NCBI GenBank assembly: GCA_019243635.1
Contig: JAFAUB010000049.1
Coordinates: 2,722-66,721, forward strand
Origin: Pseudonocardiales bacterium
GTDB lineage: Bacteria > Actinomycetota > Actinomycetes > Mycobacteriales > Pseudonocardiaceae
Reading direction: 5' to 3'
DNA: 64,000 bases
Position numbers and translations under genes: made by a program. The notes beneath the pieces were generated by a model. That model saw only the letters and a list, made by a program, of their open reading frames with translations, made no database searches and was not told the DNA's origin. Positions 16,910-38,975 of this stretch are shown piece by piece. Numbering within the stretch: the first letter of the stretch is position 1; each line of letters starts with the position of its first letter.

Positions 16910-17665
16910 GTGCGCTTCCAAATATTAGGCCCTGTCGAGATGCTTGGAGCTAATGGAATCGTCGCTATACGGGGGGCGCGCCAGCGGACGTTGCTGGCCC
17001 TCCTTCTCGTCAACGCCGCAGAGACGATGACCAAAGATCAGCTTTGTGATGGGCTCTGGGGGGACAATGTACCGATCAACGTCGATAACGCGTTACAGGC
17101 CTCGGTCATGAGGTTGCGGGGAACCCTCAAGGAGAATTTCGGTGAGCAGGACGTCGCGTGTCGACTGCTCACCAGGCCGACGGGGTACTGTTTCGACGTC
17201 GACAAGTGCGAGGTTGACGCGCATGTCTTCGAGAGCTTGGTGAACAAGGCGCAGGCCGAGATGCGGACCGACCAAGCGTACGCACTGTCTCTGCTTGAGC
17301 GTGCGCTGGCGCTGTGGAAAGGTCCTCCGTTGCAGGGTGTCATCGATGGGGCGATCAGTCGGAGCGCCACGCTCCGACTGGAGGATCGCAGACTTTCCGC
17401 ACTCGAAGACCGCTTTCTGCTCGCTACCTCGCGCGGAGTGTCTTCAAGTGTGATCAGCGAGCTGAAGGCGGCGGCCCACATGCACCCGTGGCGGGAGCGT
17501 ATCATCGAACTGTTGATGATTTCGTTGTATCGAGTCGGGCGCCAGGTTGAGGCCGTGCAGGTGTACAACCAGGTACGTAACCAACTGGTGGAGGAGCTCG
17601 GCATGGAACCGTCTCCACTGCTCCAGGCAAGACTGCGCGCCATCCTCAAAGGGGCGCCTCAATGA
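16910..17665 (+). CDS. SARP-family transcriptional activator (OmpR-type winged helix plus BTAD)
   Basis: MRFQILGPVEM...RGARQRTLLALLLVN...LCDGLWGD... and the BTAD region (ALALWKGPPL, RLEDRRLSALEDR, ISLYRVGRQVEAVQVYNQVRNQLVEELGMEPSP). GC is lower than in neighbouring genes. Confidence 0.9.
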   Translation: MRFQILGPVEMLGANGIVAIRGARQRTLLALLLVNAAETMTKDQLCDGLWGDNVPINVDNALQASVMRLRGTLKENFGEQDVACRLLTRPTGYCFDVDKCEVDAHVFESLVNKAQAEMRTDQAYALSLLERALALWKGPPLQGVIDGAISRSATLRLEDRRLSALEDRFLLATSRGVSSSVISELKAAAHMHPWRERIIELLMISLYRVGRQVEAVQVYNQVRNQLVEELGMEPSPLLQARLRAILKGAPQ

Positions 17666-17821
17666 GACCTCGGTGCACGCATCCCATGACCCCCGCTCAG
17701 TTTCGTGCGCAGACACCGCCTCGAGGTCCGGGCGGGGCAGCTGCCACGTACTTGATGTCACTGTCCGTGAGATCTGGGACAGGACTGTCACAGTGTGCGG
17801 AGGTGCCACCTCCATCACTTC

Positions 17822-18832
17822 TCATAAGGCGTTCGCCACGCGGAAGACCTGAAGGAAGCCACTGATACCGGCGCCGTGCGAGAAAGCGATGTACTCGGGC
17901 AGCGCCACCGGGTTCCACTTATTTTTGTAGGCGAGCTGAGTCTTGGCCGGGTAGACCGACTCGCCATGGGCTCCGAGCTGGTGGACCAGCCAGCGGAACC
18001 AGCGGCTGTGTGAGCCGGCCTCCAGCTCGGGGTCGAGCCCGGTGAAGGGAGTGAAGCCGAAGTGCAACCATGGCACGTGCTCGGCCTGGAACGTGTCGAT
18101 GGCGGTCTTGTTGATCGCCTCCATTATCCCGGGCGGCCCGTCCGGGAGGCGACGGCTCAGATCGTGCAGCCAACCTGGCCGGTCACCGTACACCGGTGAG
18201 TAGGAGATGTAACCGGCCAGCTCCTGGCCCAGCAACCCGATGAACAGCCGACGGTGCTGCTGAGCTGAACCGCCGTACTCGCCGACCAGGAACTCCAACG
18301 GCTTCGCGTGCTTACCCTTGCTGCGCAACCATCGGGCGTCCAGGGCAGCCATCTGCTCAGGCCACCGGGTCTGGTCGACCTCCCGCACGGTGAGCCCGGC
18401 ACGCACCGCACGGGAGATCTTGTTGCGCAGCTGCATGAACCTGGATCCGCGCAGCGTGCAGGTGGACAGATCCACCATATATGAGGAACCGATCTGGTTG
18501 GTCGTGAACCCTCGCTCCGCGTAGTATCCGAGATCGTAGGTTTGCAACTGAACGGCGACCACCTTGCGCCGCCGCGACCGGGCGTACTGGAGGAACCGGT
18601 CCAGCAGCTGCGCATAGCCGACTTCTGCGGCGAACGCGCCGCCGAACTGGACCAGGTACCGTCCGGAACGACGGTAGGCTATCACCCCGTCCAGTCCGGG
18701 CACGGTGAAGTAGCTGTTTCCACTGTTGAGAGCCAGGAACGCGCTCGGGTTGTCCGAGTACTTCTCCAGCGCCTGCCGCACGGTCTCCAGCGGAGGGGAC
18801 TGAGGTACGTTGACACCTGCGGAATCATTCAT
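17822..18832 (-). CDS. DUF2156 / MprF-C-terminal-like aminoacyl-tRNA-dependent transferase (VlmA-like candidate)
   Basis: 336 aa from MNDSAG (GAGG SD 8 nt upstream). IAYRRSGRYLVQFGG...VAVQL...YYAERGF...MVDLSTCTLRGSRFMQLRNKISRAVRAGL is typical of the DUF2156 fold. There is no N-terminal flippase/TM domain, so it is a soluble stand-alone enzyme. Confidence 0.75.
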   Translation of the reverse strand: MNDSAGVNVPQSPPLETVRQALEKYSDNPSAFLALNSGNSYFTVPGLDGVIAYRRSGRYLVQFGGAFAAEVGYAQLLDRFLQYARSRRRKVVAVQLQTYDLGYYAERGFTTNQIGSSYMVDLSTCTLRGSRFMQLRNKISRAVRAGLTVREVDQTRWPEQMAALDARWLRSKGKHAKPLEFLVGEYGGSAQQHRRLFIGLLGQELAGYISYSPVYGDRPGWLHDLSRRLPDGPPGIMEAINKTAIDTFQAEHVPWLHFGFTPFTGLDPELEAGSHSRWFRWLVHQLGAHGESVYPAKTQLAYKNKWNPVALPEYIAFSHGAGISGFLQVFRVANAL

Positions 18833-38158: not shown

Positions 38159-38189
38159 CCAGTGCGGGCCGAGCTCGAGCTGGTGGCGG

Positions 38190-38975
38190 TCACTCTCGCG
38201 GGCTGAGCTTGCTGAGAAGGATCGAGGTCTCCTCGTCAGCGGGCAGGAAGGCCTCGAGTTTGAGCTCGGCGAGGGTGACGTCGGTGGCGGTGCCGAAGGT
38301 GGTGATCGTGGTCATCAGCCGGAGCTCCCCGTGCGCGCAGCCGAGCTGGAGGGGAACGGCGAACCCGAGGTGGTCGGGTCCTGGTTCGGGGGTGGCGGCC
38401 GGCGCGTAGCCCTCGAGCTCGGCGAGCAACCGATCCAGCTCGGGATCGGGGTTTCGCAGTGACTCCTGGCGGACCCGCTGGGTGATGTGGCGGCTCCATT
38501 CGGTGAGGTTGCGAATGTGAGGTGCGATCCCCTTCGGGTGCAGCGCCAGGCGGTAGGCGTTGACCGGTGGTGTCAGCAGCTCCGGTGCGACCCCGTCGGT
38601 CAACGCGGTGAGCGCGGCATTGGCGGCCACCACGTCACCATGGCGGTTGACGATGATGGCCGGGAAGGGCAGGTGGCCGTCCAGGATGTGCTGCAGCGCG
38701 CCGAGGACGGGGCGCAGCGCCGGGTCTCCCAGGTCGGTCTCCGGGTAGGCGGGAGCGAAGCCGGATGCGAGCAGCAGGTCGTTGCGTTCCCGCAGCGGCA
38801 GCTCCAGCGACTCGGCCAGGCGGATCACCATGCCCCGGCCGGGGAGCGAGCGGCCACTCTCGATGAAGCTGACGTGGCGCTGGGTGGTGCCGGCACGCAG
38901 CGCGAGCTCGAGCTGACTCAGGTTGCGGCGGGCGCGGACGTCCCGCAACGCACCGGCGATGCCACTACTCTGCAT
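38190..38975 (-). CDS. XRE-family HTH regulator with an MmyB-like ligand-binding domain
   Basis: HTH LRDVRARRNLSQLELALRAGTTQRHVSFIESGR followed by a roughly 170-aa MmyB-like C-terminal domain (NDLLLASGFAP...PAIIVNRHGDVVAAN...). Confidence 0.75.
   Translation of the reverse strand: MQSSGIAGALRDVRARRNLSQLELALRAGTTQRHVSFIESGRSLPGRGMVIRLAESLELPLRERNDLLLASGFAPAYPETDLGDPALRPVLGALQHILDGHLPFPAIIVNRHGDVVAANAALTALTDGVAPELLTPPVNAYRLALHPKGIAPHIRNLTEWSRHITQRVRQESLRNPDPELDRLLAELEGYAPAATPEPGPDHLGFAVPLQLGCAHGELRLMTTITTFGTATDVTLAELKLEAFLPADEETSILLSKLSPRE

Follow-up and report, generated by a model that had tools for sequence, protein, structure and literature searches.

Why should a gene cluster for a natural product with a nitrogen-nitrogen bond carry a gene for a tRNA-like RNA that has lost its anticodon loop? 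The question is raised by a block of genes at positions 16910-38975 of a 64,000-nucleotide stretch of DNA from a Pseudonocardiales bacterium (here called the window), in which a tRNA-Ser-like gene with a non-canonical anticodon arm (24921-25003, minus strand; detected with ARAGORN, Rfam and our own covariance model, R1) lies among genes resembling those for valanimycin (vlm) and elaiomycin (ela). We consider it likely that these genes form a cluster for making an aliphatic NNO-azoxy compound of the elaiomycin/KA57-A type, in which the tRNA-like gene would provide a private carrier for serine. More tentatively, we propose that many actinobacterial azoxy clusters, that for elaiomycin included, encode such a private, translation-incompetent seryl carrier to feed a VlmA-type transferase, and that in some of them it lies near a seryl-tRNA synthetase (SerRS) paralogue of its own. 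The basis for both proposals is homology, synteny, co-localization and conservation of RNA structure, the chemical steps being taken from homology or from the literature.

The window gene heads a string of genes for a carrier protein, a polyketide synthase (PKS), a ligase and a VlmA homologue, all on the minus strand. ARAGORN reports it at 24919-25003 (minus strand) as 'tRNA-???' with a two-base 'anticodon'; it scores 34.2 bits with the Rfam tRNA model, the gathering score of which is 29, and 93 bits with R1. By minimum free energy it folds into a cloverleaf that has an extra arm (z = -2.4), with 7 bp in the acceptor stem, a D arm and a T arm of canonical form, and the arm at the anticodon position has a 5-bp stem closed by a 6-nt loop, GUUUCA. 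A canonical comparator was found in locus L159 (191-940), a 1-kb metagenome contig of 57% GC with five canonical tRNAs (Ser-CGA, Ser-UGA, Ser-GCU and two Lys-CUU), which matched our search pattern but is a genuine tRNA array and was excluded from the family statistics. Its tRNA-Ser(UGA) has acceptor and T arms in common with the tRNA-like family, and the window RNA is identical to it at 65 of 83 bases, with the differences concentrated in the anticodon arm.

To place the gene among its relatives, one genome per species was scanned with a VlmB alignment, which confirmed at least 435 VlmB relatives. The best 80 of these loci, with 10 kb on each side, form the comparison set, in which homologues of the window proteins were located by tblastn; the set leaves out the Streptomyces rochei KA57-A, vlm and azodyrecin clusters. 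The closest genome locus among these best 80 is L001, from a metagenome-assembled genome (MAG) of the Pseudonocardiaceae, with core proteins 72-89% identical to those of the window. Another, L009 from Streptomyces atratus, we take to be the published ela locus, since its VlmB-like protein AXE77974.1 corresponds, by an offset that is constant between accessions of sister strains (AXE77976.1 = WP_114244575.1; AXE77967.1 = WP_114244566.1), to WP_114244573.1, the accession given for ElaB of the elaiomycin cluster (review PMC11705231). In about 27 of the 80 loci ARAGORN found tRNA-like genes that are long (83-97 nt) and whose anticodons are mixed or cannot be assigned, and apart from a few ordinary tRNAs and two unrelated false positives that were dropped (L008, 333-415, and L055), these are clearly homologous to one another. 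R1 was built from 21 family members with the cloverleaf supplied by hand; RNAalifold on a MAFFT alignment, in which arm lengths vary, gave a wrong D arm and missed the hairpin at the anticodon position, and the segment between the D and T arms was folded sequence by sequence for each copy. The structure statistics refer to 109 distinct sequences from 129 loci.

The family is defined by the acceptor stem GGAGAGG/CCTCTCC with discriminator G73, the D arm CCCG-AAGYGGCCCAA-CGGG and the T arm GCAGG-TTCGAAT-CCTGC, and it keeps G18G19 and a long variable arm. At the position of the anticodon arm there is always a stable hairpin, with a stem of 5-9 bp and a loop of 3-8 nt, the loop counting 3 nt in 15 of the distinct sequences, 4 nt in 64, 5 nt in 17, 6 nt in nine, 7 nt in two and 8 nt in one. 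The loops comprise 66 different sequences, many of them tetraloops of the UUCG or GNRA type, and a canonical 7-nt loop with U33 and a purine at position 37 occurs in none of the 109. The helix at the anticodon position is thus under selection and the loop is not, and the RNA is predicted to be incapable of decoding. That it might decode after all, as a suppressor, frameshifting or mistranslating tRNA comparable to the allo-tRNAs, has in its favour that ARAGORN gives some copies anticodons (Arg, Glu, Sec, Gly, Gln, Ser) and that two close relatives of the window copy have 7-nt loops. Set against these are the lack of any U33/purine-37 loop and the fact that 96 of 108 loops are of 3-5 nt; moreover, the anticodons nominally assigned are not the same even in near relatives of the window copy (Arg-UCU in L148, Glu-UUC in L116, unassigned in L001), and an RNA that was both serylated and used by the ribosome would cause lethal mistranslation. 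We therefore give decoding hardly any credence.

An RNA without an anticodon loop could also be a tRNA-Ser pseudogene in decay, or the scar of an integrative element at its attachment site, and would then play no part in the pathway. Integration into tRNA genes is common, a disrupted anticodon arm is what a pseudogene would show, and many azoxy loci do not have the gene. Decay should not, however, spare the rest of the molecule: in the model alignment the acceptor, D, variable and T stems are paired in 99.6% of cells, compensatory double changes are seen at six pairs (G7:C66 to A:U and G13:C22 to A:U, for instance, and also 4:69 and 5:68), none of 500 shuffles reaches the observed values and no slid register comes close. 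This conservation spans Streptomyces, Pseudonocardiales and Micromonosporales, and the uniformly stable hairpin in the fifth arm is not what random decay would leave. Nor does the gene sit like a scar, for it goes along with the cluster, at differing positions, and two or three copies may stand in tandem. An origin as an attachment site was discarded for the window copy, as the window contains no second copy of the tRNA 3' half.

Upstream of the gene there is, in addition, a conserved motif. CTTTACA and GGTnTTnACT are invariant in the window and in L001, L148, L116 and L088 while the flanks diverge, the spacing among the relatives being CTTTACA-N17/18-TTnACT. In the window the motif reads CTTTACA-N17-TTGACT (25033-25062, minus strand), about 30 nt upstream of the tRNA-like gene, and we regard it as a candidate promoter of that gene. 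A scan for sigma-70 and terminator consensus sequences returned nothing near the gene and did not call this motif; a TACAAT box just upstream of the window copy was rejected as promoter as it is not kept in the relatives. Taken together, the paired stems, the hairpin, the mobility, the tandem copies, the single 3' half and the promoter-like motif make the pseudogene or scar explanation very improbable.

The earlier note on this DNA, made from the letters alone, had stated that the embedded tRNA matched no known cluster; it proved to be a conserved component of many such clusters. Searches with R1 found a family member, scoring 80-103 bits, within 10 kb in 32 of the 80 VlmB loci in addition to the window. 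The ela locus has its copy at 18424-18516 of L009, 137 nt upstream of the vlmA homologue, whereas the window copy heads the PKS string instead. The association also holds when it is approached from the RNA. A search of metagenome contigs with a pattern that covers nothing but the 5' end of the acceptor and the T-arm/acceptor 3' end yielded 97 loci, 70 of which contain genes of azoxy-cluster type or for SerRS; where at least 3 kb of flank is available on one side, the proportion is 45 of 54, which makes the RNA a sharp marker for genome mining. The most frequent neighbour of the RNA gene in these loci is vlmA, whose homologue is the nearest cluster gene in 29 of them at a median of about 225 nt, the distance being 67-310 nt in 28 of the 29 and transcription usually divergent.

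The second recurrent partner is a SerRS paralogue, found in nine metagenome loci and the genome locus L060, all of which carry the tRNA-like gene (L060 13777-14808; L086 3748-4761; L099 161-1198; L124 7334-8089; L128 2549-3547; L137 286-1041; L146 1374-2363; L152 9-482; L156 9874-10875; L166 2012-3025). These proteins are 44-59% identical to E. coli SerS and align with it from residue 6 on, the tRNA-binding arm included, and the distance from their genes to the RNA is at most about 3.5 kb in eight of the nine metagenome loci and about 12 kb in L060. Tandem arrays of two or three tRNA-like copies occur in eleven loci, among them L043 with three identical copies at a 408-nt period (175-261, 583-669 and 991-1077), L157 (1240-1583), L085, L088, L118, L145, L146, L152, L153 and L158, which suggests a requirement for gene dosage.

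These neighbourhoods bear on the strongest rival to a carrier function, namely that the RNA is a regulator and not a substrate, acting as a sensor or titrator of SerRS or VlmA, as a decoy, or by coupling the pathway to serine charging. tRNAs with regulatory roles are known (review PMC4052509), the window gene stands at the head of the carrier protein-PKS-ligase-vlmA string, and elsewhere it is often divergent from vlmA with a shared promoter region of about 170-310 nt. Yet the features that have been kept are those for aminoacylation and the L-shape (acceptor stem, G73, G18G19, T loop and variable arm), the co-localized SerRS paralogues with an intact N-terminal tRNA-binding arm point to charging, and tandem copies suggest the dosage need typical of a stoichiometric carrier. 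On balance we regard a purely regulatory role as unlikely, and a role as carrier is what the conserved features favour.

If the RNA is a carrier, its identity elements indicate the cargo. Bacterial class-II tRNAs with G73 are tRNA-Ser, tRNA-Leu and tRNA-Tyr having A73, and the anticodon is not read by SerRS. The family has the long variable arm, G73, G2:C71, A3:U70 and C11:G24; the identity pair for alanine is G3:U70, so that the A3:U70 of the family excludes this amino acid. From the retention of the SerRS identity elements and the presence of SerRS paralogues near the RNA in ten loci, we infer that the RNA is charged with serine by SerRS. Elaiomycin and KA57-A are serine-derived, and the literature has VlmA using seryl-tRNA, VlmO forming the hydrazine and VlmB oxidizing it to the azoxy group; a 2014 review described the diversion of Ser-tRNA to valanimycin synthesis as unexplained. 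We propose that the tRNA-like RNA would serve as a private serine carrier for the VlmA-type step, having kept what SerRS reads (long variable arm, G73, G2:C71, C11:G24), and that the plain hairpin in place of the anticodon arm would leave it chargeable while preventing ribosomal decoding. Serine destined for the pathway would thereby neither compete with translation nor cause mistranslation.

The idea of a tRNA withheld from protein synthesis has a precedent in the non-proteinogenic tRNA-Gly of Staphylococcus, which feeds peptidoglycan bridge synthesis by FemXAB (PMC4052509, PMC3239215) and is likewise dedicated to non-ribosomal transfer by an enzyme of the GNAT/Fem fold. The staphylococcal tRNA has a normal anticodon arm and escapes translation through weak EF-Tu binding and an altered G18G19, whereas in the present family G18G19 is retained and the T stem is nearly normal, the anticodon loop is gone and the gene lies within a secondary-metabolite cluster. 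The tRNA-like domain of tmRNA (PMC3985003) is an aminoacylatable tRNA mimic without an anticodon, as we propose for this family; it accepts alanine, goes into the ribosome and includes a module that serves as mRNA, and it is not homologous. We rate the family as an extension of the known concept of non-proteinogenic tRNAs, tied here to vlmA-type genes.

The family is apparently undescribed so far. A cluster-encoded tRNA is mentioned neither in the azodyrecin papers, the 2024 review of N-N enzymes and the January 2026 review of aminoacyl-tRNA-dependent enzymes nor in what a full-text literature search returned; the primary ela/KA57-A paper, which lies outside that coverage, may mention it. Standard annotation probably misses such genes. 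At its gathering threshold the Rfam tRNA model fails to report the copies of five loci (L009 18424-18516, L048, L051, L077 and L128), which would account for their being overlooked, and the same five score 83-96 bits with R1. A small RNA gene left out of cloned clusters could explain poor yields on heterologous expression. Should the proposal hold, a secondary-metabolite pathway would for the first time be seen to have an anticodon-less tRNA of its own, and nature would provide a case of a tRNA set apart from translation; a natural scaffold kept out of translation would be of interest for synthetic biology. An anticodon-less look-alike of tRNA-Ser encoded near vlmA and SerRS genes makes the question of Ser-tRNA diversion directly testable, and we see in it the more valuable part of the finding than in the cluster itself.

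The carrier proposal presupposes that the surrounding genes do encode azoxy chemistry. The earlier note had proposed a valanimycin-type N-N enzyme set joined to a fatty-amine pathway, and domains, synteny and 50-73% identity to ela bear this out; its gene classes are all present according to Pfam, at the positions it gave or a few bases off. The DUF2156 protein (17822-18832, minus strand; PF09924 LPG_synthase_C, 6.9e-61; NCBI MBV8539104.1), corresponding to the C-terminal domain of MprF, is a stand-alone aminoacyl-tRNA transferase of VlmA type with 336 residues and neither a membrane nor a flippase domain. It scores 88 bits against a cut-off of 600 for the NCBIfam MprF equivalog and also falls far below the LysX equivalog cut-off, and it is 58% identical to WP_189274303.1 from the S. 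atratus ela locus.

Neither the diiron protein nor the VlmO-like protein has an NCBIfam match, the former lacking a Pfam match as well, and their identities were for that reason taken from PDB, the names of homologues, synteny and residue checks. The diiron protein (29622-30581, minus strand) matches the 'Putative VlmB homolog' structures PDB 6D9F/8WVR over its full length (E=7.2e-106), which places it in the VlmB class. It has at least 1255 strong homologues, many of them named 'VlmB-like protein' by NCBI, as is the entry identical to it; its two ExxH motifs, E113-x2-H116 and E211-x2-H214, are invariant among homologues, and it is 66% identical to ElaB. The small membrane protein (31096-31581, minus strand, 161 residues) carries D51, H82, H110 and D114, invariant in 81 of 81 homologues and reported as essential, at the same numbering, in VlmO (review PMC11705231). 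It is 68% identical to its ela-locus counterpart and would thus be a VlmO-type hydrazine synthase; its weak DUF4260 match has likewise been reported for the VlmO homologue Ady6 in the azodyrecin literature.

The fourth enzyme (33374-34513, minus strand; weak matches to acyl-CoA dehydrogenase (ACAD) domains) probably belongs to the VlmH class of ACAD-fold flavin monooxygenases. Its nearest solved structures are two-component flavin monooxygenases of the DszC type, with genuine acyl-CoA dehydrogenases scoring almost as well and the amine N-oxygenases DnmZ and nitrososynthase matching more weakly, and it is 68% identical to the ela VlmH homologue. A flavin reductase of the VlmR class (30581-31099, minus strand; Flavin_Reduct, 3.5e-39; 54% identical to ela and 84% to L001), an activator of the SARP family (for Streptomyces antibiotic regulatory protein) and of the VlmI class (16910-17665, plus strand; BTAD, 6.1e-39, and Trans_reg_C; about 50% identical to the SARP of the ela locus) and a major facilitator superfamily (MFS) exporter of the VlmF class (36455-38158, plus strand; MFS_1, 2.5e-51) complete the set.

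The contrary view, in which this is not an N-N cluster at all and the DUF2156 protein aminoacylates lipids, the diiron protein is desaturase- or R2-like and the ACAD-fold protein is a true acyl-CoA dehydrogenase, can appeal to the Pfam name of the DUF2156 domain (lysyl-PG synthase) and to the weak ACAD matches. It is contradicted by the missing flippase domain and the low MprF score, the VlmB-homologue structure match (E=7e-106) and similarity to ElaB, the invariant essential VlmO residues and the synteny with ela, and is in our judgement close to untenable. Each of the four findings that the earlier note had named as fatal to its proposal (a lipid transferase, a desaturase or R2-like protein, a true ACAD, no similarity to Vlm proteins) was looked for, and none turned up.

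Its suggestion of an elaiomycin-like logic was also correct. The novelty that it implied for the combination is not borne out, as this is the published and widespread ela/KA57-A type. The order ALDH-VlmH-aminotransferase-SRPBCC-VlmO-VlmR-VlmB-(FabH)-ACP-KS-(desaturase), in which ALDH stands for an aldehyde dehydrogenase-family enzyme, ACP for acyl carrier protein and KS for ketosynthase, is conserved in the window, L001, L009 and dozens of other loci, and genes for SARP, VlmA, type II thioesterase (TEII), MmyB-like, AMP-ligase, carrier and PKS proteins lie near this core in related loci. For the ela cluster of S. atratus (Shi et al., JACS 2023, as far as it is set out in PMC11705231) the core order is the same as in the window, and the ela locus likewise has SARP, TEII, MmyB-like, MFS and VlmA homologues. 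Identities to ela beyond those given above are 73% for the aminotransferase, 68% for KS and ALDH, 60% for the SRPBCC protein and 52% for TEII, with the MmyB-like regulator (45%), the ACP (46%) and the MFS exporter (31%) more distant. The ela locus differs in a FabH gene that separates VlmB from ACP and a gene for a membrane fatty-acid desaturase that follows KS, both also present in L001 and lacking in the window; in a methyltransferase that looks FkbM-type, as judged by eye from its translation, where the window has a class-I methyltransferase and a lipase-like gene; and in its host, Streptomyces as opposed to a Pseudonocardiales MAG.

Other characterized systems are related more loosely. As in the window, homologues of VlmA/B/H/O/R stand together with a fatty-amine route and a type I PKS in the KA57-A (azx) cluster of S. 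rochei 7434AN4 (SRO_1819-1850, 'azoxyalkene and type I PKS', PMC6662830), whose product consists of a short fatty chain and serine; the likeness is drawn from the description of that cluster and not gene by gene. Valanimycin biosynthesis in S. viridifaciens and Kitasatospora setae has the VlmA/H/R/O/B chemistry, the SARP VlmI and the MFS protein VlmF in common with the window, its amine coming from valine and that of the window, as gene content suggests, from a fatty acyl chain. Of the valanimycin genes that the earlier note had reported as missing, the VlmJ-like kinase and the VlmK-like lyase indeed have no tblastn match in the whole window, as is also the case for SerRS (VlmL), whereas for the valine decarboxylase (VlmD) the point stands only in that no amino-acid decarboxylase was found among the Pfam-scanned proteins, no decarboxylase query having been run. 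In the azodyrecin (ady/azd) pathway a fatty amine is likewise made by a dehydrogenase and an aminotransferase and passed to VlmH/R, VlmA, VlmO and VlmB homologues, but the aminoacyl donor is alanyl-tRNA, the methyltransferase is of the Ady1 type (PF04072) and extension by KS/ACP is lacking.

By gene content, then, the cluster is a locally trimmed member of the known and widespread ela/KA57-A azoxy family. VlmA/H/R/O/B are already regarded as the conserved core of aliphatic azoxy clusters, which have been reported from about 6% of the reference genomes of actinobacteria and, within Streptomyces, from more than 20% of genomes, and for which antiSMASH detection rules have been described. As one more member, from an uncultured Pseudonocardiales lineage, of a family both recognized and detectable with antiSMASH, the cluster is in itself of modest value.

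The pathway that we envisage would begin with activation of a fatty acyl chain by the AMP-ligase (18907-20511, minus strand; AMP-binding, 8e-83, and AMP-binding_C; homologues at 57-64% identity in L015, L019, L024 and L056 and at 81% in L148) and its transfer onto the free-standing carrier protein (24434-24871, minus strand; PP-binding, 3.5e-9, with high GC at third codon positions, GC3), whose homologues also precede the PKS in related loci at 50-68% identity. The chain would be processed by the type I PKS, composed of KS, acyltransferase (AT), dehydratase (DH) and ACP domains (20517-24428, minus strand; Pfam), and edited by the TEII (26356-27132, plus strand; PF00975, 1.1e-33; 79% identical to L001). 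The translation of the PKS shows the active-site motifs DTACSSS, GHSIG, HxxxGxxxxP and LGLDS; it is 59-62% identical to PKS genes of L024 and L037 and 76% to that of L148, and PKS, ligase and carrier homologues together are found at 50-81% identity in L015, L019, L024, L037 and L148. The ALDH-family enzyme (34479-36332, minus strand, start codon uncertain; Aldedh, 9.4e-61), which falls far below the cut-off of every NCBIfam equivalog, would release an aldehyde, and the class-III aminotransferase (32133-33377, minus strand, start codon approximate; Aminotran_3, 1.5e-87) would convert it to the alkylamine.

The alkylamine would next be N-hydroxylated by the VlmH/VlmR-type two-component flavin monooxygenase, whereupon the VlmA-type transferase would move serine from seryl-tRNA to the hydroxylamine oxygen, the VlmO-type membrane enzyme rearrange the ester to a hydrazine and the VlmB-type diiron oxidase turn the hydrazine into the azoxy group. 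Elaboration of the serine-derived half, by C2 extension and methylation, may fall to three components. The first is the pair of a FabF-like KS (28112-29347, minus strand; ketoacyl-synt, 6.7e-50; NCBIfam PRK07314, 441.8 bits against a cut-off of 387; 84% identical to L001) and an ACP (29347-29586, minus strand; PP-binding, 1.2e-10), which is kept in nearly all related loci. The others are the SRPBCC protein (31581-32102, minus strand; polyketide cyclase/dehydrase-like, Polyketide_cyc, 4.6e-20), whose gene lies between those for the aminotransferase and VlmO in nearly all loci, and the class-I S-adenosylmethionine-dependent methyltransferase (27119-28045, minus strand; Methyltransf_25, _31 and _11). 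The SARP and an MmyB-like helix-turn-helix regulator (38190-38975, minus strand; MLTR_LBD, 4.3e-26, and HTH_3), which has its ela homologue at the same relative position, would control expression, and the MFS protein would export the product.

Several observations weigh against reading the locus in this way. With regard to the RNA, the gene has no copy within 10 kb in 48 of the 80 VlmB loci, the Actinophytocola and Labedaea subtypes among them. In four such loci a covariance search with filters off found nothing above 17 bits, so that in these the absence within 10 kb is real; the RNA must hence be accessory and not essential to the chemistry, and in-vitro studies in the literature were done with ordinary tRNA. 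The window copy has a short variable arm (4 bp), and tblastn detects no SerRS in the window itself. The T-stem pairs G49:C65, C50:G64 and A51:U63 give a predicted EF-Tu binding energy of -9.6 kcal/mol in the additive model of PMC3239215, which falls short of the means for the tRNA-Ser class (-10.1 to -10.3 kcal/mol, sd about 0.35) by only about 0.5-0.7 kcal/mol and lies inside the 1.3 kcal/mol outlier limit of the same paper. With regard to the cluster, FabH, the membrane desaturase and the FkbM-type methyltransferase have no tblastn match in the whole window, the stop codon of VlmB being followed after 35 nt by the start of the ACP, and the PKS has a DH but neither a ketoreductase nor an enoylreductase domain for building the chain. 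These absences leave product details and the intactness of the cluster uncertain.

They also lend some weight to the possibility that the cluster is degraded or differently tailored, giving no product at all, or a saturated or differently methylated alkyl-azoxy compound or hydrazine in place of an elaiomycin-like alkenyl compound. A class-I methyltransferase and a lipase-like gene stand where the ela genes are absent, and saturated azoxy congeners do exist in nature (azodyrecins D-G). The genes that remain are nevertheless all intact open reading frames (ORFs) with high GC3 and tight or overlapping junctions, and the same proteins recur in three assemblies, so that we hold this alternative to be rather unlikely, if the least so of those considered. 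An elaiomycin-type azoxy pathway is thus the reading that we retain, and the product predicted from gene content is probably related to elaiomycin and either saturated or different in its methylation; the chain of this elaiomycin-like alkyl-azoxy compound may be saturated, and its methylation would be due to a non-homologous enzyme.

Some related loci depart from this plan in other ways. In one subtype (L047, L048, L057, L065 and L076) the tRNA-like gene, at about 16.2-17.4 kb, lies immediately upstream of a diacylglycerol-kinase-like (VlmJ-like) gene, and L047 and L057 also have an MmgE/PrpD-like (VlmK-like) gene near it; loci of the L047/L057 type appear to be fatty-amine clusters that also possess the valanimycin-type kinase-lyase pair. 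In L048, from S. fulvorobeus, a second, unrelated ferritin-like protein of diiron appearance (14809-15921, minus strand, 370 residues, with DEARH motifs) is encoded between the KS and the kinase and tRNA-like genes. VlmB relatives with 57-60% identity are found in Acidobacteriota MAGs (L035, L039, L046, L049, L062 and L066) of the Pyrinomonadaceae, Holophagales and Thermoanaerobaculia, and VlmO-, VlmH- and aminotransferase-like genes accompany them, showing that the azoxy-type enzyme set is not confined to Actinobacteria; within range of these loci there is no tRNA-like gene, KS or VlmA homologue.

As to the extent of the block, genes in this high-GC actinobacterial DNA were called by GC3 and then checked with Pfam, since mechanical ORF lists contain many spurious frames. 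Eight predicted proteins are identical to entries from Pseudonocardiales bacterium MAGs (for example MBV8539104-118). The lipase/alpha-beta-hydrolase-like protein (25140-26357, minus strand; a weak Lipase_2 match, 1e-4) has no tblastn homologue in the 80 related genome loci, and in L001 the TEII gene directly abuts the tRNA-like gene, so that its membership of the cluster is doubtful; the class-I methyltransferase likewise has no tblastn homologue in the 80 loci and is lineage-specific. The borders at 16910 and 38975 are reasonable given that the scanned flanking genes look like housekeeping genes (H+-PPase, helicase, HAD hydrolase, GH31 and acetyl-CoA synthetase). A start of the PKS at 24965 (a 1482-residue ORF, 20517-24965, minus strand) was rejected as a high-GC artefact in favour of the ATG at 24428 read from the sequence. 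This artefactual ORF runs 537 nt further upstream, through the carrier-protein and tRNA-like genes, and could lead automatic gene finders astray. No coding signature is seen in the small ORFs at 16239-16898, and between 16001 and 18000, over the SARP gene and the intergenic region upstream of it, the GC content of the window drops to 0.61 from about 0.70 elsewhere.

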